Origin: a virus
Taxonomy: Duplodnaviria > Caudoviricetes
Strand: one strand, 5' to 3'
Length of the DNA: 64,000 nucleotides
IMG/VR virus record: IMGVR_UViG_3300013121_000017
Coordinates: 197,681-261,680 of that record
Numbering within the stretch: position 1 is the first letter of the stretch; each line of letters starts with the position of its first letter. This document shows, one piece after another, positions 4,790 to 23,634 of the stretch. The notes beneath the pieces are model-generated. The model ran no database searches. It worked only from the letters and a program-made list of their open reading frames with translations, and was not told the origin of the DNA. The position numbers and the translations under genes were made by a program.

Positions 4790-4803
4790 GGGTATATACC
4801 TCG
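4790..4803. promoter_or_regulatory. Palindromic late-promoter-like element GGTATATACC between divergent genes
   Basis: CGAGGTATATACC on the minus strand is identical to 35644-35656; TATATA lies 6 nt from ATG 4786. Confidence 0.55.
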
Positions 4804-5973: not shown

Positions 5974-8022
5974 ATGCCGCCGCTCATCAAAGTCGGCGAC
6001 CAGCCACAACTGGTCGAGACTTCCAAATACCCATACGCAACATTCCCGTTCGCCAAATTCAATCCGGTCCAGAGCCGTATCTTCGAGTTCTACGATCAGG
6101 ACTGCAACGCGGTTATCGCGGCGGCAACGTCCGCCGGCAAGACCATCGTTGGCGAGATGTTTGCCAACCACGAACTACAGGTTCGTGGCGGTTCCTTCAT
6201 GTACCTCTGTCCTCTCCGCGCCTTGGCCCAGGAGAAGGTGGATGACTGGACCGACCCAACGCACCCCTTCAGCAAGAAGAAAGTCGCCATCTGCACCGGC
6301 GACTACCGGCTGACCAAAGAGCGGGCGGAAGAAATTGCCGCCGCCAATGTCATCATCATGACATCGGAAATGCTCAACCACCGCTGCCGCAACCACAAGT
6401 CGGAAGGCAACACTTTCCTCCAGAACATCGGGACCATCGTCGTTGACGAAAGTCACCTTCTGACCGTCCCAGGTCGTGGCGACCATCTTGAAGTCGGCCT
6501 CATGAAGCTGACCGCGATGAACCCGAAGTGCCGCGTCATCATGCTTTCGGCCACGATGCCGAATGTGGACGAGATCGCGGAGTGGGTCAGCTACAACCTC
6601 ACCAAGCGGAACACCTACGTTCTTGTTTCCAACTACCGGCCCTGCCCGCTCACCAAGTATTTCGAGAAGTACGCCGACGACGAGAAGACCTACGAGCGGA
6701 AGGAAGAGAATAAGATCGACAAGGCTCTCGACATCGTCAAATACTACCCCGACGACAAGTTTCTCATCTTCACGCACACGAAGCGTACCGGCGAACGCAT
6801 GTCGAAAGACTTGACCGCCGCCGGGATCAAGAACGAGTTCCACAACGCGGATCTCGACAAGGAGAAACGAATTGCGTTGGAGAAGCGGTTCAAGACCGAT
6901 CCGGCTCTGCGATGCGTCGTGGCTACGTCTACGCTGGCCTGGGGTGTGAACATGCCCGCTCGCCGCGTTATCGTTCTCGGTGTCCACCGTGGGATGAGCG
7001 AGGTAGCGACCTACGACATTTTCCAGATGATCGGTCGTGCGGGCCGTCCTGCCTTCGACCCCGCCGGTGACGCCTACATCCTCGTTCCCGAGTCGCAAGC
7101 GTCCATGTGGAAGGCGAGGCTGGCAGCCCAGCAACGCATCGACAGCCAACTGCTGGAGAACTATGCTGGCAACTACAAGCTGCTGGCTTTCCACGTCGTC
7201 TCGGAGATCCACCACGGCAACATCACCTGCGAGGATGACGTGCGTTCGTGGTTTGAGCGGACGCTCGCCCACTTCCAGAGTAAGGAACTGGACGACACCG
7301 CCGTGGACAACGTCATCAAGTTGCTCAAGGAGTGTTTCGCGATTGTGGAAGAGGACGGCAAGCTGAAAGCCACATCCATTGGGGTAATCAGCAGCATGTT
7401 CTACTTCAGCCCGTTCGACGTGAGCCACCTGAAGCGAAACTTCAAGTCGCTCTTCGAGCATGGTCGGGAGAACGATGACCTGTTCGTTTCCATCGCACTG
7501 GCGAACATCGACAGCAACCGCATGGGCTTCGCCAGCCGCGCCGAGAAGGAAGAGCTTGCTGGTTTTGAGCGACGTGTCCGCAACGCCGTCCCGCCCGAAG
7601 AGCAGGAGAAGATGAACCTGACGGACGGCGCGATGAAGGCCGCGTTCATGTACAACTGCTTGCTGACCGGCTCGCCGACCAACATCATGGCCGGGGCCAT
7701 GCGTGGCATGCAACACGATTCGCCGCGTCTTCTGGCCGTCGTTCAGGCTCTGGATAGCATGGGCAGCAAGTGGGGCCAGCGGGCCTTCCTTGAGACGCTG
7801 GAGAAGCGTATTCGGTACGGCGTGCCGCAGCACCTGATCGAACTGGTCAGCATCCCTCACCTTGGGCATGTTCGCGCCAACAACCTCTACAAGGCGGGCA
7901 TCAAGAATCTCGAAGAGCTTGTCGAGGCGAAGCCGGAAGACCTGATGCGGATCACGAAGATGAGTCGTAAGCTCGTTGACGAAGTGATCGAGGAAGCCAA
8001 CATCAAGATGGCGACGACTTGA
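5974..8022 (+). CDS. Ski2-like (Hel308/Brr2-type) SF2 helicase with C-terminal HhH
   Basis: FNPVQ Q-motif, ATSAGKT, PLRALAQEK, DESH, LSATMPN, ATSTLAWGVNMPA, QMIGRAGRP, HhH 'IPHLGHVRA'. Confidence 0.92.
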   Translation: MPPLIKVGDQPQLVETSKYPYATFPFAKFNPVQSRIFEFYDQDCNAVIAAATSAGKTIVGEMFANHELQVRGGSFMYLCPLRALAQEKVDDWTDPTHPFSKKKVAICTGDYRLTKERAEEIAAANVIIMTSEMLNHRCRNHKSEGNTFLQNIGTIVVDESHLLTVPGRGDHLEVGLMKLTAMNPKCRVIMLSATMPNVDEIAEWVSYNLTKRNTYVLVSNYRPCPLTKYFEKYADDEKTYERKEENKIDKALDIVKYYPDDKFLIFTHTKRTGERMSKDLTAAGIKNEFHNADLDKEKRIALEKRFKTDPALRCVVATSTLAWGVNMPARRVIVLGVHRGMSEVATYDIFQMIGRAGRPAFDPAGDAYILVPESQASMWKARLAAQQRIDSQLLENYAGNYKLLAFHVVSEIHHGNITCEDDVRSWFERTLAHFQSKELDDTAVDNVIKLLKECFAIVEEDGKLKATSIGVISSMFYFSPFDVSHLKRNFKSLFEHGRENDDLFVSIALANIDSNRMGFASRAEKEELAGFERRVRNAVPPEEQEKMNLTDGAMKAAFMYNCLLTGSPTNIMAGAMRGMQHDSPRLLAVVQALDSMGSKWGQRAFLETLEKRIRYGVPQHLIELVSIPHLGHVRANNLYKAGIKNLEELVEAKPEDLMRITKMSRKLVDEVIEEANIKMATT

Positions 8023-12404: not shown

Positions 12405-12477
12405 ATTGTTCCCTCCGTTCTATTTAGAGGGTGGACTGAAGAATGCTGGTGGGCAACGTGTAAGAATAGGGGGATGA

Positions 12478-13737: not shown

Positions 13738-14079
13738 ATGCACCAATTCGCACTCGTCATCTGGGGGACACCCCAGCCATCCCAAGACGCTTCCCTCCCT
13801 TTGCCGAAAAACCCCTGGCTTCTACGTCGCCGGGTGGGCGGCGTGAAGTATGAGGTCGAGCGTCTTTTTTCACGTTTCGCTGAGAAGAGGCTCTCCCCTC
13901 AACAGGCGAAAGACCAGATCCTGACATTCCTGTCTTCCGAATACCAGCGGAACGAGGTATACTACCGATTCATCAACATGAGGATCGGCATCCGCCGGAT
14001 GGCCGTATACCTTCTGGGCCGCTACATTCAGGAGTTTGAGCAATGTCGGAAGAACAGGTCCACGAACACTACGACGTGA
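13738..14079 (+). CDS. Hypothetical protein
   Basis: 113-aa ORF overlapping the thyX start. Confidence 0.6.
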   Translation: MHQFALVIWGTPQPSQDASLPLPKNPWLLRRRVGGVKYEVERLFSRFAEKRLSPQQAKDQILTFLSSEYQRNEVYYRFINMRIGIRRMAVYLLGRYIQEFEQCRKNRSTNTTT

Positions 14080-14948
14080 TGACCCTGGTCCCCAACCGGA
14101 CCCACAAGCTGCTTGACTATGGTCACGTCACGCTCGTTGACTGTATGCCGCGTTTTGCCCCGGTGGGCTTCACGGCAGACGCTGCCATTGTGCAGGCGGC
14201 ACGGGTGTCCTACGGCGACGGCACGAAGAAAACCTCTGAAGACAGAGGTCTGATTCGTTATCTGATGCGTCACGGTCACACCACGCCGTTCGAGATGGTC
14301 GAGTTCAAGTTCCACTGCAAGATGCCCATCTTCGTCGCACGGCAGTGGATACGCCATCGCACCGCCAACGTCAACGAGATCTCGGGCCGCTACTCGATCA
14401 TGAAGGACGAGTTCTACAAGCCGGATGCCGCCGGCATTCGCGCACAATCCAAGACGAACAAGCAGGGCGGCACAGATCCCATCGACGTGGAGACGGCCAA
14501 GGACTTTCTCGCCTATCTGGACGAGATCTGCATCAAAGCCTACCAGACCTACGAGCAGTACGCGAAAGAGGGCGTGAGCCGCGAACAGGCTCGTATGGTC
14601 TTGCCACTCAACCTGTACACGGAATGGTACTGGAAGATTGACCTCCACAACCTCTTCCACTTCCTCGGCCTCCGCTGTGACGCCCACGCTCAGTACGAAA
14701 TCCGCGTCTTCGCCGATGCGATGCTAGAATTGATTAAGCCTCTCGTACCGTTCGCGGTCGAGGCTTGGAACGACTATCACTTCCGCCGGCAAGCCGTTCT
14801 GCTGACCCGTCTGGAAGTGGACGCTCTCAAGAAGATGCTCGGCGAAGACTGCAAGGGCGTCATGATTGACAGCGACAACAGTCGTGAAAAGGAAGAGTGG
14901 AAAGCCAAGCTGATTCGCCTGGGTCTGACCCTCGAATCAGGCTTCTAG
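14043..14948 (+). CDS. thyX: FAD-dependent thymidylate synthase
   Basis: AARVSY, HTTPFEM, VARQWIRHRTANVNEISGRYS (RHR-x7-S), REQARMVLP, LRCDAHAQYEIR. Confidence 0.97.
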   Translation: MSEEQVHEHYDVMTLVPNRTHKLLDYGHVTLVDCMPRFAPVGFTADAAIVQAARVSYGDGTKKTSEDRGLIRYLMRHGHTTPFEMVEFKFHCKMPIFVARQWIRHRTANVNEISGRYSIMKDEFYKPDAAGIRAQSKTNKQGGTDPIDVETAKDFLAYLDEICIKAYQTYEQYAKEGVSREQARMVLPLNLYTEWYWKIDLHNLFHFLGLRCDAHAQYEIRVFADAMLELIKPLVPFAVEAWNDYHFRRQAVLLTRLEVDALKKMLGEDCKGVMIDSDNSREKEEWKAKLIRLGLTLESGF

Positions 14949-14956
14949 GAGGTTTC

Positions 14957-15412
14957 ATGAGCGATAGAGTTGGCAAGTTTGTACTTGCCGTGTCTTGCCT
15001 TACGCTGCTGTCCGTCGCGTTCCTGACGTACCGCAGTTTTTCCCCGTTGGCGTTCGTTGCCAACGAATACAGCCCGACTTCTGACCAAGTGACCACGGAC
15101 TTGCTCGGCAAGTCTGTGGGCCTCCCACAGGGCCAGATCTGGGGTTTCAATCCCGATCAGGCTTTGACGGTGAAGACGGTCGGGAAGAAGCAGTTGGACC
15201 CGGATACTGTCGTTGTGACGGTTGATGTCAACGCCGTTGTCAAGTTCCCACCGCCGCCGAAGGAAGGCCCGAATGCACCAAAGGCCAACGACCCGCCCGC
15301 GCCTAAGAAGGCGACGTTGACTGGGTTGGCCAAGGTCTACTACGAGCGACACCAGGGACAGTGGTACTGTACCAGCGTGGACGGCATCAACCTCAAGGTG
15401 ACAGCGGAATGA
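14957..15412 (+). CDS. Membrane-anchored/exported hypothetical protein
   Basis: SD AGGAGG; N-terminal hydrophobic helix, Pro-rich loop. Confidence 0.7.
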   Translation: MSDRVGKFVLAVSCLTLLSVAFLTYRSFSPLAFVANEYSPTSDQVTTDLLGKSVGLPQGQIWGFNPDQALTVKTVGKKQLDPDTVVVTVDVNAVVKFPPPPKEGPNAPKANDPPAPKKATLTGLAKVYYERHQGQWYCTSVDGINLKVTAE

Positions 15413-15618
15413 CGATTCGTCAGTCCTTCTACCTTGTGTGTTGCAACTGCAACAACCAGTTTATTGACCCGCAGTATGGAGGTCAGTTTTGCAGTCCCGA
15501 GGAAGCCAAAGAGACGGCTATGAAGAGGGGCTGGAAGATCGATGTCCCAGTGCCTAATGGATCACTGTGGGATTTCTGTCCGAGATGTGCAACAAAAAAC
15601 CCCGCGTCAGATGACTGA
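15409..15618 (+). CDS. Small zinc-finger protein
   Basis: CCNC ... AMKRGW ... DFCPRC; ATGA overlap. Confidence 0.7.
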   Translation: MTIRQSFYLVCCNCNNQFIDPQYGGQFCSPEEAKETAMKRGWKIDVPVPNGSLWDFCPRCATKNPASDD

Positions 15619-15635
15619 CGCGGGGTTTCCTTTTT
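15597..15635. terminator. Bidirectional intrinsic terminator
   Basis: AAACCCCGCGTCAG-atga-CTGACGCGGGGTTT between convergent genes, with an A-tract and a T-tract. Confidence 0.8.
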
Positions 15636-15646
15636 CAGGGCCGGTA

Positions 15647-16384
15647 TTAGCGGCGGATGACGACTCTGTTGCCGAAGAGGCCGTTGCGGACAACGACCGC
15701 GTTGTTACCGACGACGACTCTGTTGCCAAAGACACCGTTGCGGACGGCAACCACGTTGTTGTGGCCGAAGCCGACGTTGCGGACGGCAACCACGTTGTTG
15801 TGGCCGAAGCCGACACCGTAGTTACCGAAGCCGACACCGTAGTTACCGAAGCCGACACCGTAGTTACCGAAGCCGACACCGTAGTTACCGAAGCCGACAC
15901 CGTAGGTCGGGGTGGCAACCACACCAACCGGGCAAACCGGGGCTGCGTAGACAGGTGCTGCGACCGGGCAGGGTGCTGCGACAGGTGCTGCGACCGGGTA
16001 GCTGTAAGGAATCGGGGCTGCGATGGTCGGAACAGCGACCGCGACGGGCGGTGCGTAGGCGACCGGGACAGCGACCGGGTAGGCATACGGAACAGCAGCG
16101 AAGGCGTTGTAGCCGTAGCCACCGAAGCCGACACCGTAGTTGCCGAAGCCGAAGCCGAAGTTGTTGTAGCCGTGGTTGAAGCTGCGAACAGCGACCACGT
16201 TGTTGTGGAAGCCGACGTTGCGGACGGCGACCACGTTGTTGTGACCGAAGCCGACGTTGCGGACGGCGACTACGTTGTGGCCATTACCCACACGGACAGC
16301 CACTGTTCCGTGTGCTTGGGCAGCAGTTGCCGATCCGCAGATCAGCGCCACCACCAGGGCCATCGAGGCGAAAAACTTGTTCAT
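15647..16384 (-). CDS. Secreted low-complexity repeat protein (G/V/N/F/Y-rich, amyloid-like)
   Basis: Sec signal (MNKFFASMALVVALICGSATAAQA), repeats NVVAVRNVGFGH and YGVGFGN, central P/A/V/Y segment; SD AAGGAGAG. Confidence 0.8.
   Translation of the reverse strand: MNKFFASMALVVALICGSATAAQAHGTVAVRVGNGHNVVAVRNVGFGHNNVVAVRNVGFHNNVVAVRSFNHGYNNFGFGFGNYGVGFGGYGYNAFAAVPYAYPVAVPVAYAPPVAVAVPTIAAPIPYSYPVAAPVAAPCPVAAPVYAAPVCPVGVVATPTYGVGFGNYGVGFGNYGVGFGNYGVGFGNYGVGFGHNNVVAVRNVGFGHNNVVAVRNGVFGNRVVVGNNAVVVRNGLFGNRVVIRR
15804..15905. repeat. 21-bp tandem repeat (4 perfect copies + partial) encoding YGVGFGN
   Basis: CCGAAGCCGACACCGTAGTTA x4 + CCGAAGCCGACACCGTAG; flanked by about 39-bp repeats encoding NNVVAVRNVGFGH. 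Confidence 0.95.
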
Positions 16385-16451
16385 GTTAGCTCTCCTTGTG
16401 AGTTCGAGTTCAGAGTTGACCTCAAGAGTATGTATGCCGCTGACTCACTAT

Positions 16452-17318
16452 TTAGCGGCCCTCAAGCCAAGCCGTAATGACTTGGTACTCTTGCTGGGTC
16501 AGGGCGAAGTTAGACTGACGCGGGGGCATCCGGCCTCCCTTGATCTCACTGAGCATTGACCTGAACGGGGCGTCCGGGTTCAACTGATTCAACTGACTGA
16601 AGATCACGACCTCGCCCTTGGACCCAGGCCCGGTGTGACAGTTCATGCAGTTCTTCGCCAGGGCGTTAATAGCCGGCTGTGCGAAGGGCGATTGCGGGTT
16701 GGGGCGACCACCAAGGTTTCCAACGGGCGGGTTTGTTGGTCCACCCACGGGCGGTGTGACCGGCGGCGTCACAGGAGCCTGTGCGCCAGGGTAGATTGCC
16801 ATTGGAGGTCCGTCGTCTGTGCCGCCATTATCAATGGCGTCCTGACGCCGCATTTCTTCCAAGAGCAGCTTGGCAAGTTCCTTCAGCTTGGCGTTGCCGT
16901 TATCAGCACCGGGCATAACCGGCTGAGGCTGTGCAACTGGTTGCTGGTAGGGACCGTTGTACTGAACCGGCGGTGCATAGCTGGGGCCGGCAGGCATGCC
17001 TCCTGGCTGAACCGGGTATGGCGATCCATAACCGGGAGCAGGTGCGCCTGGGTAGACTGGTACGCCTGGGGCCACAGCGACAGGCGGAACGTACTGGTAT
17101 GTGAAGGCAGGCACGATGACCGGGAGGGCCACAGGCACTGCGATGGGGGTAATAACTTCAGCGACTGGCGTAACCACAGCAGGCTTGTGAACCACGACCG
17201 GAGTGTGGCACACAGGATTGCCTCGGACGACTACGCCACGTCCACACGACTGAGCAAACACTGGTGACGCTGCAAACGCCAGCAGGAATGCACAGAGAAA
17301 AGCGATCTTCGTTTTCAT
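16452..17318 (-). CDS. Secreted Pro-rich protein with C-terminal c-type cytochrome domain (planctomycete cytochrome c-like)
   Basis: Signal peptide; 'ALAKNCMNCHTG ... GRMPP ... LTQQEYQVITAWL' (CxxCH plus distal Met). Confidence 0.82.
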   Translation of the reverse strand: MKTKIAFLCAFLLAFAASPVFAQSCGRGVVVRGNPVCHTPVVVHKPAVVTPVAEVITPIAVPVALPVIVPAFTYQYVPPVAVAPGVPVYPGAPAPGYGSPYPVQPGGMPAGPSYAPPVQYNGPYQQPVAQPQPVMPGADNGNAKLKELAKLLLEEMRRQDAIDNGGTDDGPPMAIYPGAQAPVTPPVTPPVGGPTNPPVGNLGGRPNPQSPFAQPAINALAKNCMNCHTGPGSKGEVVIFSQLNQLNPDAPFRSMLSEIKGGRMPPRQSNFALTQQEYQVITAWLEGR

Positions 17319-17342
17319 GGGGGTTCTCCTTGTTGAGAGTAT

Positions 17343-19001
17343 TTACTTCCTCAGTGGTAGTTTTTCAGGAACCACGATCCTTGGGACTTCGCCGGGCCGT
17401 AGCTTCGATGCAACGACGATCAGCATAAACCCTTGGTACGATTCCTCAAACTGGTCACGTCTTAGTGGCCTGATCGGCTCCCTGAGCAGGCCAAGTAGGA
17501 TCGGGTCGTTGGACAATTTCAACAGCCCGTCCAGATCCTTGAAGTTCAGGGCGAACTCCCTTGCCACGTCTTCCTTGTTCATCAGGTGTTCGAGGTAGTT
17601 GTCGTAGATGAGGCCATAGCTCTTCGAGAGAGCCTGGGTTTTCATGCCGTTTGTCAACGCCACGGCGTCCTGATAGATCTGCATGTCCTTCGTAACTTGA
17701 CGTTCCAGATCCGATCCGAACAAGTCTTGCACCTTGTAAGCGTCCTGCTCCTTGGTTATTAGCAACTGAATGCTGTCGTGGTTCGGGTTCCACTTGTTCA
17801 AAGCCCTGACTTCGTCGTCAATGGTTTTGATTCCTTCGCTGTGACACACGATGCAGGATCTAGCACTTCTCACGACGCGATCCACCGCAGAGTTGTCCAA
17901 CACAATGTTAATAGGAGCCTCATCTTGTCTCCCTCCGTTGCCGTCTGCCAGGAAGTAAGCCTGAAGTCCATTCGGCAAAGTACCGATGTATTCTGATGCG
18001 TCGTGCTTGTTGTCCAGCAGGTTGAGCAACGCCTTGTTGCCCTTGATGCTGTTCAGTACGTCGAAGGTTTCCCAGTAGTAGCCGCCGGTGAAGGTCGGGC
18101 TACGCTGTACTCTTCGGTTGTTTCTGGATATACCAGACATCACGATGACGGCACGGTCCTGGCTGCGAGCTTTCTCAGCCAAGGCTAGGTCCGTGAACAC
18201 CAGCTTCTGAAAGTCCTCTACCTTGTTTCCGAGGTTCAGGAAGTTGTAGTACGCTGGAGCCAGGGTTGCGTAAGTGATGAACCAATCCGCTCTAACAATC
18301 GGGGCTTCCGACTGAGTCAGCTTGATGAAGTCCGCCATTACGTCGGCGTTGATCCAGGGCGGCGATACCAGCTTCTCCTTCTTGATATTCTGCTCGATGG
18401 GAACTTGAATCTGTTCCTCGATCTCAACGTCCTCTTTGACCAGCCGCTTCTCGTAATACGGTTGTCCTGTGTTCTGGTAGACGCCTACCTGTACGAGCTT
18501 TTCGACCTGTTTCGTTACTGTTTTCTTCTGGGTGATCGTCTTGAACTTGACCTCGGCCTTGTCCACGATCAGTGTGTGGAAGTAAGGTTCTGGGAATGGT
18601 CGAGGGCCGCTTCCTTCGCGGGCCAGTTTCTCCCAGGATTCTGGATTCCAGTCATAGTCCTTGATGTTGATGCGGATCACAGTTTTCTCACTGGCTCCGA
18701 CAAACACAGGGATGTAGATCTTTCGCCTTGTCCCAAGCGAGTTCACCACGAACGATACAATTTTTGCGTACTCGTCACGTTTGGCAGCCGGGATGTTGTG
18801 CAGCGAAAGATAGCGAATGTATGGCTGTTGTTCGACCGGCAGAGTCTTCAAGTCTGCCAGGGCGAAGAACACAGAGCTTTCTGGCGTCCATAGCTTCTCC
18901 TCGACAACAGGCGGCGGACCATCAGGTTGCTGTGCCTGTACAGACAGAAGAGCGGTAAGGCCAAGGGCCAGTAGCATGATGCCACAAAACAGTTTCTTCA
19001 T
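17343..19001 (-). CDS. Secreted protein with a single heme-c motif
   Basis: Signal peptide MKKLFCGIMLLALGLTALLSVQA; 'LPNGLQAYFLADGNG..DEAP..SCIVCHSEG'. Confidence 0.78.
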   Translation of the reverse strand: MKKLFCGIMLLALGLTALLSVQAQQPDGPPPVVEEKLWTPESSVFFALADLKTLPVEQQPYIRYLSLHNIPAAKRDEYAKIVSFVVNSLGTRRKIYIPVFVGASEKTVIRINIKDYDWNPESWEKLAREGSGPRPFPEPYFHTLIVDKAEVKFKTITQKKTVTKQVEKLVQVGVYQNTGQPYYEKRLVKEDVEIEEQIQVPIEQNIKKEKLVSPPWINADVMADFIKLTQSEAPIVRADWFITYATLAPAYYNFLNLGNKVEDFQKLVFTDLALAEKARSQDRAVIVMSGISRNNRRVQRSPTFTGGYYWETFDVLNSIKGNKALLNLLDNKHDASEYIGTLPNGLQAYFLADGNGGRQDEAPINIVLDNSAVDRVVRSARSCIVCHSEGIKTIDDEVRALNKWNPNHDSIQLLITKEQDAYKVQDLFGSDLERQVTKDMQIYQDAVALTNGMKTQALSKSYGLIYDNYLEHLMNKEDVAREFALNFKDLDGLLKLSNDPILLGLLREPIRPLRRDQFEESYQGFMLIVVASKLRPGEVPRIVVPEKLPLRK

Positions 19002-19057
19002 TCGTTTTCTTTCGGATTGCGGTGGGGGACGCAAGTCCCCCACCTATGCCAGTCGTA

Positions 19058-19702
19058 TCAGGCGACGACAACGCCGGTGTGAACCACCGGATCAGTTGCC
19101 TTCGGCTTGATCGCGTTCAGGATGGCCTGGATCAGTGCTTCGATAAGTTGCGGGCCATACTTTTCCAGAATGACCGGGAGCAGCTTTTCGAGCAGCGTTG
19201 AGATGATGCTTGCGTCAAGCTTTGCCTGGGCCGACATCACTTCGCCGGCTTTCGGCTTGATTGCGTCGAGAACCATCTTGATGAGGTACTCGATCAGTTG
19301 CGGGCCGTACTTCTCAAGGATCAGCGGCAGGAACTTCTCCAGCAAGGTCGTGATCAGGTTGGAGTCCAACCCTTCCACGATCTGGCCGTCGATCACGACG
19401 CCGGTCTGAGGCGAGCCGTCAACTGACAGTGGAACCTCGGCGATTGCCATGTTCCGTGTGAACAGATCCTGAAGGAACTGAAGCACGGTCGGGCCGAATT
19501 TGTTGAATGTGTCCATGATCCACTGGATGGTGAACCCGCTACGAGCGAGTTCTACCAGCAGGGCAAGGACATCCGGGCCGAACTTCTCCAGAATGTCGGC
19601 CACAGCACCGCTATCAAAACCGAAGTCTTGGGCGGAAGCCTTCAGGATGTCGATCTGTTCGACCGACATCGCGCGAACTTCTTGGTTAGACATGTCTATC
19701 AC
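19058..19702 (-). CDS. Amphipathic helical-repeat protein
   Basis: Four K[FY]GP helix-turn units; near-duplicate 'LLEKxLPxILEKYGPQLIExLI..L.AIKPKA'. Confidence 0.75.
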   Translation of the reverse strand: MIDMSNQEVRAMSVEQIDILKASAQDFGFDSGAVADILEKFGPDVLALLVELARSGFTIQWIMDTFNKFGPTVLQFLQDLFTRNMAIAEVPLSVDGSPQTGVVIDGQIVEGLDSNLITTLLEKFLPLILEKYGPQLIEYLIKMVLDAIKPKAGEVMSAQAKLDASIISTLLEKLLPVILEKYGPQLIEALIQAILNAIKPKATDPVVHTGVVVA

Positions 19703-19720
19703 CTTTTTCTAAGTAAGTGT

Positions 19721-20563
19721 TCAACCAGTCACAACGGGGACATCGTCCTCGGTGTTTTTGTCCTGCGGGTCATCGAACGCCGCTTGGATTGCGAATGCGT
19801 CAGGGTGCATCTGGCTGAAGTGTTCCCGACGAAGGTATGCGTGTCCCTTGATGCCGAATCTTTCGCCCCAAGAGTTTTGGATCTTGATCAGCCATCCGTA
19901 GCGTGGGTGCTTCTTGAGGCCGACGCCCAGGATGCAGTGACCGCCGCCGCCACTGGTGCGGAGCGGGCAGACGCCCTCGGAATCGACATTCGAGAAGTTG
20001 TCCCCGACCATGATGCCCAGTGGGCAGCAGAAGCCGAGGTTGATGGCCTGACAGATTTCATCGAAGCTGTTGCACTTGAACGCCAACGACAGTCGGAACC
20101 GCATGGCGGCGTCGTACATCTGCTGCGTGAACTGGCTCTGGTACATCACTCCCTGTCCCAACATTCCGTTGGGGCATGCACCATAACGCTTCAGAGCCAT
20201 CAGGCCGTTGGAGATCATCGCGCCGGCATCCCGCCCGCCGTTGATCAGGCCGTAGGTGAAGTACGGCGTGAACTCTTGGGCTGGGTTGCCCAGTTGTTTC
20301 CACACCAACTCCATACCTGATGCACAACCCTGGCCCACACACGAAGACGTGCTGCCCTGGTTGAGGATTCGGTTTTTGTAAACGACCGCAAGGTCGATCT
20401 CCCGCAAATCGTGCTGTGCCTGACCGAACAACTGATCGCCGAAGTTGGCGAAGTCGTGGTTGTTGTCAGACGGAATGCAGCCGAGAACGCGGTATTCGCC
20501 GTCGAATTTGATCGCCGGCAGTCTGCTGATTGAAAGTGGGCCGATTGGATGCCTCATGTTCAC
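19721..20563 (-). CDS. Papain-like cysteine protease (C1A family)
   Basis: NQGSTSSC (Q/C), GGGHCILGVG (H), IQNSWGERFG (N). Confidence 0.9.
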   Translation of the reverse strand: MNMRHPIGPLSISRLPAIKFDGEYRVLGCIPSDNNHDFANFGDQLFGQAQHDLREIDLAVVYKNRILNQGSTSSCVGQGCASGMELVWKQLGNPAQEFTPYFTYGLINGGRDAGAMISNGLMALKRYGACPNGMLGQGVMYQSQFTQQMYDAAMRFRLSLAFKCNSFDEICQAINLGFCCPLGIMVGDNFSNVDSEGVCPLRTSGGGGHCILGVGLKKHPRYGWLIKIQNSWGERFGIKGHAYLRREHFSQMHPDAFAIQAAFDDPQDKNTEDDVPVVTG

Positions 20564-21300
20564 CTCACATACTTGTTCAGGATTGCGATGACATCTGCGT
20601 CCGTCCTCGGGACCAGAAGTTCGGTGGGGTTAAGCACCGCACCGGCCTGGGACTGGAGAATCATGGTCGGACCACCGCCATTCTTCGTGACCAGCCCGTC
20701 GAGTTTCTTTGCCGTAACAACAGGCGACGACTTGTCGTAGATCCTCATGAACCCACCCTTGTCGCTGACCGTCTTTCGGAGGGTCGCACTGTTGAGCAAC
20801 GCTGCCAGTTCTGGAGTGGCATTGTTCATGTCCACCACGAACGTAAGGTGGAACTTCCCAGCAACCGGGGCCGGCGGGTTAGGTCCGGGCGGCTGTGGTC
20901 CAGGCGGGGTAGGCCCGTTACCACCAACTTGAATTGAAGTTCTCACGAACTCGGTCATCTTGCCGTCAACCAACCCGACCGCAAACACAGTTACGACCGT
21001 GCCGGGCTGAGTTGGAACAGAGACGATGATTGAGTTGGTTGAGTCGTTGGAAACGTATTTGACTTTTACACTGCTGATGACCAGCCATTTGACTGATCCC
21101 TTGCAGGTAGCTGTGATGTTGACGAAGCCTTCATCAGGGGCGACAACTTGGTCCGGCGTCAATTCAATCCCGGTAGCCTTGTTGGCCGACGCGATTGGTG
21201 CTGGCGGTGTTGGCGGACCCTCTTGGGCCGACACAGTTGCGCCCATGAGTGCCAAGGCAACCAAGCCTGCCATCAAGCCTGCGGCTATTCTCTTGATCAT
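20560..21300 (-). CDS. Secreted two-domain protein with Pro-rich linker
   Basis: SD GGAGGAG; signal peptide MIKRIAAGLMAGLVALALMGATVSA; beta domain, GPTPPGPQPPGPNPP linker, alpha/beta domain. Confidence 0.8.
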   Translation of the reverse strand: MIKRIAAGLMAGLVALALMGATVSAQEGPPTPPAPIASANKATGIELTPDQVVAPDEGFVNITATCKGSVKWLVISSVKVKYVSNDSTNSIIVSVPTQPGTVVTVFAVGLVDGKMTEFVRTSIQVGGNGPTPPGPQPPGPNPPAPVAGKFHLTFVVDMNNATPELAALLNSATLRKTVSDKGGFMRIYDKSSPVVTAKKLDGLVTKNGGGPTMILQSQAGAVLNPTELLVPRTDADVIAILNKYVR

Positions 21301-21406
21301 GGGTTCTCCTCCTGTCATGGGATTTTTCTTGAAATGCGGCGTGACCGCCTTCGGGTAATAGCACTTGTATGTATTCAGCAGATTCTGTTTTGTCTTCTTG
21401 GCGGGT

Positions 21407-21415
21407 TGCTATAAT
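21407..21415 (+). promoter_or_regulatory. Extended -10 sigma70-type promoter (TGcTATAAT)
   Basis: TG-C-TATAAT immediately upstream of the structured non-coding region. Confidence 0.6.
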
Positions 21416-21419
21416 AAGG

Positions 21420-21594
21420 GTGTGCGGGACGGAAAACCCTGCACGCCAACCGTCGAGTCGTCTTGACGGCAGGCGACATAACTGACTCAAAAAAGGTCAG
21501 TTGTGTTCGTCGTTGGTTCTCCTTGTCAAGTTGTCGCATGCAGGGCAACTAGGGTTAGCCGGGTGGGCCTAAAGCCTGCTCGGCTAATCTTTTT
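21420..21594 (+). ncRNA. Candidate structured small RNA (possibly 6S-like)
   Basis: No credible ORF; own promoter and terminator; several helices including long-range CCCTGCA/TGCAGGG and CTTGAC/GTCAAG pairings. Confidence 0.5.
21553..21594 (+). terminator. Intrinsic terminator
   Basis: GGTTAGCCGGGTGGGC-ctaaa-GCCTGCTCGGCTAATC-TTTTT. Confidence 0.8.
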
Positions 21595-21618
21595 GGTAGT
21601 TGACACTCCTGTGTCTAT

Positions 21619-22941
21619 ATGGAAGAAAAAGCACGCTCTCTCATCGAGGCTTTCATTCGTAAAGACCTCAGTCATACATGCCAGATCTCAGTCGTCGGCG
21701 ACGTGATGTTGGACGAGTATTATGATGTTTCGGTGAGTCGAATTTCCCCAGAATTCCCTATCCCAGTCATGCGGTCACAATCTGACCGATGTACCCGCGT
21801 CCCAGGTGGTGCGGCAAATGTGGCTCTTCAATTCTCTAAGTTCAACACACATGTCTTCCTGACCGGCATCACTCATGATGTCATGCCGCTCATGCCTCTG
21901 AAGAAGATCACAAACCACAGCCCCCTGGACTGCGGGTTAGTCATCCCGGTCAAGAAACGCTTCTACCAGGGGGATTTCCCTGTGGCACGCTGGGATGTCG
22001 AGGAACCATGTTACGGTCAGACCTCGCTGTGGATGTTCGATGACTTTGAGCTTCAGAGGACTGAGGTCACAGTCTTCAGTGACTACAACAAGGGCATTTT
22101 CGACAAGCCTTGGTACAAGCGGTTCCTCAAAGACCGCCTTACCATCGTTGATCCCAAGCACGATCTAACTCGCTGGGAAGGCTGCACCATCCTCAAGCCG
22201 AACAGCGTCGAGGCAGCCGCACTCACCGGCGAGAAAGATTGGAAACGACAGGCAGAGAAGCTGAAGAAGATTGTTGGCTGTCGGGACGTGGTCATCACTC
22301 AGGGGTCCGAGGGCGTCGTGGGCATTACCCCGGCTGGTTTCTTCGAGTATCGCCCGAGTCGGAAGGACGAGGTGAATAGTGTGATTGGGGCCGGGGATTG
22401 CTTTATTGCGTTCCTGGCGATGGCTGTGGCACACGGTATGTCCACTTACGAGGCTGCAATTATCGCGTATGAGGCGGGAGCCGTGTACGTTCAGAGTAAG
22501 CACAACAGGCCGTTGAAGCCTGCGGAATTGCTCGCACGGAAGGGTGGTAGTCAAGTCGTCTTTACAAATGGCTGTTTCGACTTGTTACACGCCGGACACA
22601 TTCAGACCCTGGAATTTGCCAAGGATCAGGGTGATTTGTTGGTGGTGGGGATCAATTCGGACGAGAGCGTGAGACGTTTGAAGGGCGACAGCAGGCCGGT
22701 AAACAAACTGGCCGACCGCATCCGTGTGCTGTCGGCCATGAAGTGTGTTGATTGTGTCGTTCCGTTTGACGCCGACACTCCGTTGGACCTGATCAAGTAC
22801 GTCAGGCCAGACATCATCGTCAAGGGTGGGGACTATCGGGCCGAGGAAGTGGTCGGCCATGATTTGGCCGAGGTCATCATCGCCCCGATGTTGGCCGGGC
22901 TTTCGACCACCAGCTTGATTGCGAAAACGAGATCCAACTGA
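21619..22941 (+). CDS. hldE: Bifunctional heptose 7-phosphate kinase / heptose 1-phosphate adenylyltransferase
   Basis: VGDVMLDEY..RISPEFPIPV, PGGAANVA, SDYNKG, IVDPK, VIGAGD; FTNGCFDLLHAGH, GINSDESVRRLKG, KGGDY, STTSLI. Confidence 0.93.
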   Translation: MEEKARSLIEAFIRKDLSHTCQISVVGDVMLDEYYDVSVSRISPEFPIPVMRSQSDRCTRVPGGAANVALQFSKFNTHVFLTGITHDVMPLMPLKKITNHSPLDCGLVIPVKKRFYQGDFPVARWDVEEPCYGQTSLWMFDDFELQRTEVTVFSDYNKGIFDKPWYKRFLKDRLTIVDPKHDLTRWEGCTILKPNSVEAAALTGEKDWKRQAEKLKKIVGCRDVVITQGSEGVVGITPAGFFEYRPSRKDEVNSVIGAGDCFIAFLAMAVAHGMSTYEAAIIAYEAGAVYVQSKHNRPLKPAELLARKGGSQVVFTNGCFDLLHAGHIQTLEFAKDQGDLLVVGINSDESVRRLKGDSRPVNKLADRIRVLSAMKCVDCVVPFDADTPLDLIKYVRPDIIVKGGDYRAEEVVGHDLAEVIIAPMLAGLSTTSLIAKTRSN

Positions 22942-22945
22942 TCTC

Positions 22946-23284
22946 TCACTTGTGGTTCTCGCAGCAGCCCTTCTTCGTGCCGCACTCCTTCTTCGGGTCT
23001 TGGTTCTGCTTGCCTGGGCATGCCTGACAGGAACACTTCTCGCACTTGCAGCCGCCGACGCAGGTGCAAGGGTTGCAGGTGCAAGCCTTCTTGCCGGGGC
23101 ATGACTTGCAAGCACAGTTGTCGCACTTGCAGTCCTTACAATCGCAATTCTTGCAGTCGCACTTGACCGCATGTGCGGCGTGAACGCCGAGTGCCTTCTG
23201 AACGTCAGGGCAATACTTTACAGCCGCCCCCATGCCGACCAGACCCAGGACTACGCCCAGGACTAGGATTCCTAGTGTCTTCAT
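22946..23284 (-). CDS. Metallothionein-like Cys-rich protein with N-terminal hydrophobic leader
   Basis: 22 Cys, including two 9-Cys (CxC)4-C-PGK domains. Confidence 0.72.
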   Translation of the reverse strand: MKTLGILVLGVVLGLVGMGAAVKYCPDVQKALGVHAAHAVKCDCKNCDCKDCKCDNCACKSCPGKKACTCNPCTCVGGCKCEKCSCQACPGKQNQDPKKECGTKKGCCENHK

Positions 23285-23352
23285 CTTTGCTCCTTTGATT
23301 GGGTGTTGGGCGACTGAGTCGCCTACATACCCATACTGTAGTGGTCGGAGTT

Positions 23353-23634
23353 ATGAAAATGACCAAGAAGCGGTATTCACGCCAACAGATCAAGAAGCTC
23401 TTTGAGAAGAAATGCTACTTCTGCGGCGAGGACAATTACGACCTTCTCGATGCTCACCGGATTATTCCTGGCGAGCAGGGCGGTAAATACAACGACCACA
23501 ACATCCTCGTCATTTGCAGCAACTGTCATCGCAAGTGCCACGCAGGAGTGATCAAGATCGACCGGAAGTACATGTCCACGACGGGCAGGTGGGTGCTTCA
23601 CTACTGGATAGACGGAGAGGAAAAGTGGGCATGA
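23353..23634 (+). CDS. HNH endonuclease
   Basis: CYFCG..LDAHRIIPGEQGGKYNDHNILVICSNCHRKCH. Confidence 0.85.
   Translation: MKMTKKRYSRQQIKKLFEKKCYFCGEDNYDLLDAHRIIPGEQGGKYNDHNILVICSNCHRKCHAGVIKIDRKYMSTTGRWVLHYWIDGEEKWA

Follow-up and report, generated by a model that had tools for sequence, protein, structure and literature searches.

The DNA examined here (the window) comprises the final 64 kb (64,000 nucleotides) of the IMG/VR virus record IMGVR_UViG_3300013121_000017, which is 261,680 bp long, has a CheckV completeness of 52%, and is therefore a fragment of a huge phage. Its minus strand carries six tightly packed genes, g1 to g6, which appear to form one operon conserved through a clade of huge T4-like phages. 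Two of the products, g4 and g5, carry invariant haem c motifs and correspond to parts that are fused into one protein in bacteria. We propose that they form an exported, split two-haem unit with a sensing or redox-modulating role, which would feed a proteolytic or envelope-directed step. We give this overall account a probability of about one half and have much less confidence in any specific chemistry.

All six open reading frames (ORFs) were found on the minus strand where the first-pass annotation of this DNA had placed them, with spacings of -4, 18, 14, 24, and 67 nt between successive genes from g1 to g6. Four of the products (g1, g4, g5, and g6) are predicted to be exported. Their N-termini combine KD12 peaks of 2.4-2.8 with positive charge and AxA-type sites; the peaks of g2 (1.1) and g3 (1.6) are not signal-peptide-like. 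These calls come from a heuristic, that is, the N-terminal hydrophobic peak (KD12) plus an AxA-type cleavage site, and not from SignalP. They agree with the four signal peptides named in the first-pass annotation, and those of g1 and g5 are conserved in homologues.

The g5 gene (16452-17318, minus strand) encodes 288 residues, which open with a signal peptide and a conserved Cys by the cleavage site. A VPAFxYQY motif and a low-complexity tether rich in Pro and Tyr lead to a short helix, and the C-terminus is a cytochrome c domain (residues 211-288, 16455-16688). This domain scored 27.1 bits against PF13442 (29.2 bits in a six-frame search), with a cut-off of 27. Residues C224, C227, H228, M264, and P265 were invariant in 11 homologues, and so was the signal-peptide-like N-terminus. 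Judged from these features, the C-terminus of g5 is a class I His/Met mono-haem cytochrome c domain of the PSCyt1 (Cytochrome_CBB3) type.

The g4 gene (17343-19043, minus strand) encodes 566 residues, with a likely alternative start at ATG 19001. Its product belongs to an unnamed family and matched no entry in Pfam (E ≤ 0.1), NCBIfam, or PHROGs, nor any in the PDB sequence-profile search (profiles A1 and A2). The haem c motif C397-I-V-C400-H401 (17841-17855) was invariant both in 44 diverse phage homologues and in a set of 37 phage and bacterial sequences. The CxxCH motifs reported in two products by the first-pass annotation are thus real and conserved, and haem attachment itself is predicted. 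We also considered a zinc site for the CxxCH motifs of g4 and g5 and rejected it, since the export signals, the presence of a cytochrome domain in the partner protein, and the structural matches all point to haem.

An AlphaFold2 model of g4 (pLDDT 88, pTM 0.82) comprises an N-terminal alpha/beta domain, a long beta-hairpin, a beta-sheet domain with the CxxCH motif, and a helical C-terminal domain. Foldseek against the PDB found no significant match for either the full protein or the domain model, with 7s5o at rank 46 (E 1.2). When the haem domain (residues 271-413, 17805-18233) was compared with 48,161 PDB chains by VIA-align, ranks 1-4 were all cytochrome c'-beta or P460 structures, namely 8brk (Z 5.3), 6hiu (4.5-4.8), 7s5o (4.0-4.2), and 6amg (3.8-4.0), with 2je3 (3.3) at rank 8, all of them below the usual noise ceiling of the tool (Z 7-8). 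The alignment to the full 135-residue chain of 8brk covered residues 44-186 of the domain model, with the CxxCH motif at 170-174. Like these five cytochromes, g4 would be a periplasmic mono-haem c protein with a beta-sheet fold, and its single CxxCH motif follows the sheet near the C-terminal end of the domain, as it does in the P460/c'-beta family. It differs from them in its low identity (9-14%), in the lack of a profile match, and in the embedding of the domain in a 500-residue protein with additional N- and C-terminal domains. A P460/c'-beta-like haem domain is, on the basis of the model, a fairly probable and family-consistent lead. P460 and cytochrome c'-beta are further marked by a five-coordinate haem, and P460 by a Lys-haem cross-link, traits that a sequence does not reveal.

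The beta-hairpin of the model (residues 157-226, 18366-18575) consists of two strands of approximately 32 residues each. The tblastn alignments with homologues from cells and from distant phages leave this region out, and the hairpin is an insertion specific to the huge-phage clade. In the g4 homologue of a 586-kb contig, L006 (9001-10812, P0006), a PDZ domain (residues 163-211) occupies the hairpin site. This PDZ-bearing form comes from the single relative in which the cassette is missing its C1 protease gene.

The cellular homologues of g4 are fused proteins. In them, a signal peptide and a PSCyt1 domain, with its CxxCH near residue 60, precede the g4 domain, whose own CxxCH lies near residue 440, and variable C-terminal domains follow. 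An hhalign comparison of the C-terminal domain of g5 with these N-terminal PSCyt1 domains gave a probability of 97.4% (E 9.6e-12). Because the C-terminus of g5 is homologous to the PSCyt1 domain fused before the g4 domain, the phage proteins g4 and g5 correspond to one cellular protein, split in two and with its domains in swapped order. This relation is, in our view, the strongest argument that the two would work together; a complex prediction for g4 residues 46-556 with g5 residues 205-288 gave a score of 0.01, which speaks neither for nor against binding. The phage pair resembles the cellular PSCyt1 (PF07635) multidomain proteins of Planctomycetota, Verrucomicrobiota, and Myxococcota in that the g5 domain is homologous, the g4 domain follows PSCyt1 in hundreds of them, and all are predicted to be exported. 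Unlike in those proteins, the phage domains reside on separate genes in reversed order, with a Pro-rich tether added in g5 and a beta-hairpin in g4. The described architecture of PSCyt1 proteins is PSCyt1-PSCyt2-PSD1 and not PSCyt1 plus the g4 domain. A literature search on PSCyt1 retrieved no functional study.

A scan of cellular genomes, restricted to one genome per species, yielded 109 loci. Most belong to Planctomycetota, including the cultured Rhodopirellula and Aporhodopirellula; others come from Verrucomicrobiota (cultured Verrucomicrobium), complete Poribacteria and Phragmitibacter chromosomes, Myxococcota, and Hyphomicrobiales. A profile search with the haem domain collected 4,466 clusters (50% identity), whose proteins range from 215 to 2,278 residues. 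Among the fusions sampled were a Ser/Thr kinase placed N-terminal to PSCyt1 and the g4 domain (one family member), leucine-rich repeat (LRR) arrays with cohesin and dockerin, WD40 propellers, a combination of TPR, TonB_C, and FGE-sulfatase domains, and DUF4384. Taken together, these architectures look like those of an extracytoplasmic input or adaptor module and not like those of a respiratory enzyme. Periplasmic c-type haem sensor domains occur in chemoreceptors and kinases, examples being the haem-PAS proteins GSU0582 and GSU0935 of Geobacter. The kinase-bearing cellular family member is similar to them in that a covalent-haem domain is fused to a signalling output. The folds differ, however (PAS versus P460-like), homology is not detectable, and the phage proteins are free-standing, without a transmembrane output.

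The neighbourhoods of the cellular genes point in the same direction. In Planctomycetaceae and Pirellulaceae, a recurrent operon encodes the fused haem protein together with two other secreted proteins and an exported WD40-PDZ-caspase (C14). The caspase gene lies between those for the secreted proteins, the first of approximately 370 residues and the last of approximately 246 residues with a low-complexity region rich in Gly, Asn, Gln, Tyr, and Pro. This undescribed four-gene arrangement, carried by Planctomycetota and Verrucomicrobiota chromosomes, is seen at L057:7192-14742 and also at L051, L053, L061, L064, L069, and L071 (L numbers denote our loci and contigs). The ~370-residue protein (profile A6) had no PDB sequence-profile match. 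Caspase-domain genes lay within 8 kb of 18 of approximately 75 cellular loci, in both Planctomycetota and Verrucomicrobiota. Together with the phages, three unrelated protease families adjoin g4-type genes: C1 in the window, M10 matrixin in phage contig L005, and C14 in cells. In a quick-search maximum-likelihood tree built from the haem domain, a long branch parted 70 fused cellular forms from the split forms, that is, the phage proteins and those of five contigs from metagenome-assembled genomes (MAGs), including L010. The tree gave no sign of a recent host-to-phage transfer.

The first-pass annotation had allowed for the possibility that the six genes never co-occur elsewhere. They do co-occur, in order, in many huge phages. 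The g1-g6 order is kept at 28-61% identity in L007 (669 kb), L008/L009, L091, L092, L093, and the 595-kb sequence LR756511.1, and the flanking genes differ in each of these contigs. LR756511.1, an unannotated GenBank entry termed 'uncultured phage' that we take to be part of a 2020 survey of huge phages, is a complete relative. A 117-kb ENA contig carries the same cassette, as judged from gene sizes and the cytochrome match. L006 lacks only g2, and in L002 the cassette is cut by the contig end. Homologues of g4 number at least 734, many of them on contigs of 0.5-0.67 Mb.

More distant phages, L003/L004 (195-253 kb) and the low-GC L005 (70 kb), keep only a trio. Its members are a g4-like protein that carries an SH3_3 domain at its C-terminus, a protein with a signal peptide at one end and CxxCH...MP at the other, and a low-complexity protein that also has a signal peptide. 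The core of the cassette is therefore g4-g5-g6, with a protease added in most versions, and g1 and g3 are specific to the huge-phage clade. A signal-peptide low-complexity gene followed g5 at every related locus. Directly upstream of the trio in L005 lies an M10 matrixin gene (7046-7930), whose product bears a cysteine-switch pro-segment (PRCGxPD) and lacks a signal peptide; this version of the cassette has neither g1 nor g3. A nearby gene in L005 was read by eye as YiiX-like and was assigned to no family by Pfam, and the L003 trio has a C92 permuted papain-like amidase (PF05708, 30.9 bits) in its vicinity. The trio also occurs on the MAG contig L010, next to a weak, sub-threshold small-terminase-like gene. 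Split phage-type trios were seen on contigs of 6-49 kb in Planctomycetaceae/Pirellulales MAGs (L010:7860-14056, L011, L012, and L021). These contigs possibly represent smaller phages or planctomycete prophages, in which case they would be evidence for the host. The taxonomy of the homologues suggests that the hosts are probably Planctomycetota or other bacteria of the Planctomycetota-Verrucomicrobiota-Chlamydiota (PVC) group living in wastewater or freshwater.

The most conserved gene of the cassette is g2 (19721-20563, minus strand; mean column identity 69%), whose start overlaps the stop codon of g1 by 4 nt. Residues 65-252 of its 280-residue product aligned to the cysteine protease PDB 3OIS (E 5e-6), and the protein matched phrog_16701 'peptidase' at 8e-10. 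The score against PF00112 was 16.4 bits, below the gathering cut-off of 20.7. The g2 family comprises 121 proteins encoded on the same contigs as g4, and many of them, at 35-60% identity, carry a precomputed PF00112 assignment. Residues Q69, C75, H209, and N230 stand in the order of the C1 family, align with those of 3OIS, and were invariant in six homologues. By these sequence criteria, g2 is an intact papain-family (C1) protease, and the Q/C/H/N site described in the first-pass annotation holds. The likeness to 3OIS-like bacterial C1 proteases extends across the whole catalytic domain with the Gln, Cys, His, and Asn residues in place. Unlike these enzymes, g2 has neither a signal peptide nor a recognizable pro-domain, and its family is confined to contigs of this phage lineage. 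A hydrophobic N-terminus was absent from all six homologues examined, and Pfam detected no I29 inhibitor family in the 60-residue N-terminal extension.

The g1 gene (20560-21318, minus strand) was annotated with 252 residues, and the start codon with a good ribosome-binding site is ATG 21300, behind AGGAGGAG, which gives 246 residues. Behind the signal peptide, a Pro-rich linker joins a conserved beta-rich N-terminal domain to a C-terminal one that is alpha/beta-like and also conserved, with 42 invariant columns across seven homologues. No family was found for g1 in Pfam, PHROGs, NCBIfam, or the PDB sequence-profile search, and its nearest Atlas clusters are unnamed and more than 93% viral. 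According to hhalign, g1 is unrelated to the ~370-residue secreted protein of the cellular operons (probability 0.4%). The g3 gene (19058-19702, minus strand) encodes a helical protein of 214 residues with amphipathic K[FY]GP repeats, whose copy number varies among relatives (132-227 residues). Family searches gave only sub-threshold matches to g3 (SapB_2, delta-lysin), and the Atlas search gave nothing usable. The g3 homologues at L007:8475-8945, L091:5440-5949, L092:5377-5916, and L093:5371-5895 have Cys-rich N-termini (MxxCCK, MSEECCGGKKCC), a feature not present in g3 of the window.

The exported, 245-residue product of g6 (15647-16384, minus strand) is of low complexity, with 22% Val, 16% Gly, 14% Ala, and 12% Asn. 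Both types of repeat protein listed in the first-pass annotation were recovered, K[FY]GP in g3 and NVVAVRN plus YGVGFGN in g6. At the DNA level, a 21-bp unit is present in 4.9 copies at 15804-15905 and a 39-bp unit in two copies, both with 100% identity, which points to a recent expansion or contraction of the repeat protein. The perfect repeats at 15736-15905 and 16183-16278 encode the YGVGFGN and NVVAVRN units.

In the mechanism that we favour, g4 would be exported by the Sec pathway and receive one covalent haem c from the cytochrome c maturation machinery of the host. Its haem would reside in a P460/c'-beta-type beta-sheet domain that offers a binding site for small ligands. The likewise exported g5 would hold a PSCyt1-type His/Met haem c at the tip of its long Pro-rich tether and pass electrons to or from g4. 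The pair would be the equivalent of the bacterial extracytoplasmic sensor or adaptor proteins with PSCyt1 and g4 domains, coupled in the phage to a protease of the papain type, g2, and to low-complexity sequences that are small and exported (g6 and the g5 tether). During infection, it would read or alter the state of the host periplasm with respect to redox or to small ligands (NO/O2-type), and this signal would feed a proteolytic or envelope-directed step. A placement in the periplasm or at the cell wall is consistent with the SH3_3 and PDZ domains found on some phage g4 proteins. The first-pass annotation had offered a redox-active periplasmic or extracellular matrix as its second option; the redox-active periplasmic part is closer to the evidence than the lysis function that it had put first, and the matrix part is a separate idea of low rank.

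Several observations weigh against this mechanism, and the main weakness is compartmental. Neither g2 nor g3 has an export signal, so that the protease would occupy a compartment different from that of g4, g5, and g6 unless membranes are breached. Either g2 and g3 act on cytoplasmic precursors or partners, or they meet the exported proteins only upon such a breach. Moreover, the cellular operons contain nothing that corresponds to g1, g2, or g3, and L006 lacks g2. For both reasons, the cassette may consist of two functional units that have stayed side by side. The resemblance of g4 to P460 and cytochrome c'-beta, with Z scores of 3.3-5.3 against a noise ceiling of 7-8, is missed by Foldseek and by sequence profiles. 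A cytochrome c maturation gene (PF01578) was not found in the window's own record, which is ~52% complete, and haem loading would therefore be wholly host-dependent. The host itself is inferred from the taxonomy of homologues, and the sensor function is suggested by the architectures of distant cellular relatives (25-40% identical) that belong to a separate deep clade.

A bolder version of the favoured mechanism takes the cellular family as its starting point. The g4 domain with PSCyt1 would then be a widespread, undescribed periplasmic haem sensor with protease output, tied to WD40-PDZ-caspase proteins in an apoptosome-like triad of the PVC envelope, and the split phage copy, tied to a papain-type or matrixin protease, would seize a life-or-death switch of the host. 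We consider this version improbable. The comparison with the apoptosome (cytochrome c, Apaf-1 WD40, and caspase-9) is an analogy only: the cellular operons pair a cytochrome c-domain protein with a WD40-caspase protein, and some cellular proteins fuse PSCyt1, the g4 domain, and WD40. In contrast to the apoptosome, the bacterial proteins have signal peptides and would be periplasmic, no STAND ATPase is present, and both the homology of the cytochromes and the activation of the protease are only conjectural.

The rival that survives best, though we think it unlikely, is an auxiliary periplasmic redox enzyme. The P460/c'-like g4 would detoxify or convert nitric oxide (NO), hydroxylamine (NH2OH), or peroxide, g5 would be its electron carrier, and the other four products would be neighbours or helpers. 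The best fold matches of g4 are indeed NO- and NH2OH-handling cytochromes, the invariant polar residues R251, D253, W254, R310, R314, W324, D328, D383, and D388 look enzyme-like, and periplasmic oxidoreductases typically work with a tethered cytochrome c of the His/Met type. The operon also sits among metabolic genes (HldE and ThyX), and N-oxides are common in wastewater and activated sludge, the source habitat. However, the cellular relatives, with their kinases, LRR, WD40, and TPR domains and caspase neighbours, follow the pattern of sensors or adaptors. A redox enzyme would leave unexplained why a protease and a low-complexity protein are so strictly conserved alongside it, and the fold match on which it leans is weak.

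The first-pass annotation had preferred a non-canonical lysis cassette, with the protease in place of an endolysin and the repeat protein as a holin. In this scenario, the protease and the exported proteins would dismantle a protein-rich planctomycete envelope at the end of infection, which we regard as quite unlikely. It would account for the retention of proteases of different families (C1 and M10) beside the exported trio in different phages, for their lack of signal peptides, as in cytoplasmic endolysins that await a holin, and for the cell-wall-type SH3_3 domain on some g4-like proteins. Yet the cassette itself offers no positive support for lysis, and no muralytic domain was detected in the six products with Pfam, PHROGs, or NCBIfam. 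Hydrophobic segments are confined to the four N-terminal signal peptides and are absent from g3, and no lipobox was found. The cassette lacks a holin-like small membrane protein and a spanin-like lipoprotein as well. Furthermore, the homologous cellular proteins, fused to kinases or to WD40, LRR, and TPR domains, are clearly not lysis proteins, and both the protease and the KFGP-repeat protein lack export signals.

In the complete 595-kb relative LR756511.1, T4-type lysozyme (PF00959), SLT (PF01464), Amidase_2 (PF01510), and GH19 (PF00182) domains were not found, which would favour a lysis function of the cassette; the evidence is weak, however, as just five families were searched. The PF00182 control matched nowhere. 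LR756511.1 does contain one M23 match (PF01551), a peptidoglycan-peptidase candidate 225 kb away from the cassette, with no homologue in the fragment that holds the window; its presence counts against a lysis role of the cassette. PF00959 and PF01510 were likewise not found in the window's own record, nor PF00959 and PF01464 in three related records, but all of these are ~43-52% complete and the result is correspondingly weak.

It is still less likely that the phage proteins mimic or hijack an envelope surveillance system of the host, acting as decoys or substitutes that block or redirect a stress or suicide pathway of the PSCyt1-g4-domain and WD40-PDZ-caspase proteins. Caspase-type proteases are common effectors of bacterial conflict systems, and a generic PADLOC caspase model matched the cellular caspase protein. 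The operon of cytochrome-domain, secreted, WD40-PDZ-caspase, and low-complexity proteins recurs across lineages, and the separate deep clades of phage and cellular forms would be expected of a long-held viral version. On the other hand, PADLOC returned 0 families for all six cassette proteins and no model matched the cellular haem protein, the defence role of the cellular operon is itself conjectural, and a decoy would not need five conserved companions.

The least probable of the alternatives is an exported matrix, in which the haem pair would oxidatively cross-link or nucleate g6 and the g5 tether into a periplasmic or surface layer, for example in superinfection exclusion. The secreted low-complexity protein that always follows g5, the abundance of Tyr, Gly, Asn, Gln, and Pro in the g5 tether and in some cellular partners, and the growth of g6 by perfect DNA repeats, as in structural repeat proteins, would fit such a layer, but Tyr is not common to all (the low-complexity proteins of L003 and L005 are rich in Val, Asn, Gln, and Thr with few Tyr), no peroxidase-like signature was found, and the idea is purely compositional. 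Virion proteins were dropped as an explanation, since Sec signal peptides and a non-structural neighbourhood argue against them.

The signals that border the operon were examined as well. A hairpin at 15597-15628, with a 14-bp stem that includes nine G-C pairs and T runs on either side, is a bidirectional intrinsic terminator that closes the unit, as the first-pass annotation had noted, and also ends a convergent 85-residue gene. Rfam gave only sub-threshold terminator-like matches for 15000-22000. Upstream of g1, 300 nt without an ORF (21319-21618) separate the operon from a divergent HldE-like gene; this leader had no Rfam match even at E ≤ 1. A scan of the operon region for sigma-70-like promoters found none.

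The hexamer TAnATA occurs 29 times in the window (13.7 ± 3.2 expected). The record as a whole (262 kb) has 135 copies, of which 35 stand in sense orientation 10-39 nt ahead of a predicted start codon, as compared with ~2.7 expected, and TAnATA is therefore a real positional signal of this phage. The first-pass annotation had cited three such hexamers in the operon as late-type motifs. The hexamers are present at the cited coordinates, but only one of them, the TAAATA at 17340-17345 (minus strand), 27 nt upstream of g5, falls in the usual 10-39-nt range. The TACATA at 21368-21373 (minus strand) lies 55 nt upstream of the annotated start of g1, inside the ORF-free leader, and for g6 the distances are 50 and 70 nt. 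Two of the cited hexamers, at 17340 and 16449, are the TAA stop codons of g4 and g5 followed by ATA. The full octamer of the T4-type late promoter, TATAAATA, is absent from the operon, and the label 'late', which rests on a degenerate hexamer, is tentative. Many TAnATA copies stand just 8-13 nt before an ATG (for example, GGTATATAAAGCATG), which would imply very short or absent leaders; examples of sites in the window are 4793-4798, 12421-12426, and 17340-17345. Several genes behind TAnATA begin with N-termini of the F-x-x-W-L type.

Wastewater metatranscriptome contigs from four libraries of one study tile g1-g6 and several of the gene junctions at 99-100% identity, and they also run across the terminator. 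They are compatible with transcription, with DNA carry-over also possible, and are no evidence on operon structure or timing. Near-identical sequence occurs in wastewater and activated-sludge runs, and the phage is possibly active in wastewater communities. Contigs of 99-100% identity match the region 14000-23500 of the window, which places the phage or a near-identical strain in such communities.

The genes that flank the operon are non-structural, namely ThyX (14043-14948) and the HldE-like bifunctional sugar kinase/adenylyltransferase (21619-22941). Farther away are PrkA/YeaH/SpoVR, a CCA-adding enzyme, a helicase, and DnaE. An ORF at 22946-23284 encodes 112 residues, which start with a hydrophobic leader and are otherwise very rich in Cys, like a metallothionein. 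It is conserved, with a homologue of 39% identity at the same relative position in L006.

No description of the cassette, the g4 family, or the cellular operons was found in Pfam, PHROGs, NCBIfam, the PDB (by sequence or fold), PADLOC, or the literature searched, and a literature search linking huge phages, Planctomycetes, and cytochromes retrieved nothing relevant. The remark of the first-pass annotation that this is not a described module is borne out. The new findings are the split-versus-fused relation to PSCyt1 proteins, the candidate haem domain of P460/c'-beta type, how large the cellular g4-domain family is and which architectures it has, and its recurrent pairing with three unrelated protease families.

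If the favoured account is true, it would provide the first functional handle on an unnamed family of ~4,500 clusters at 50% identity, which is centred on Planctomycetota and reaches Verrucomicrobiota, Myxococcota, and Proteobacteria. That handle would be a covalent-haem extracytoplasmic input domain of P460-like fold, repeatedly coupled to proteases and kinases. The occurrence of a cytochrome c domain with WD40 and caspase in bacterial envelope operons would be a testable counterpart of eukaryotic cell-death components. Even if the sensor idea is wrong, the cassette offers a compact, widely conserved target of four exported proteins and a protease that are easily expressed. For the huge phages themselves, the account would mean that they devote six conserved genes to the manipulation of the host periplasm by means of host-matured haem, which would be an unusual auxiliary function.

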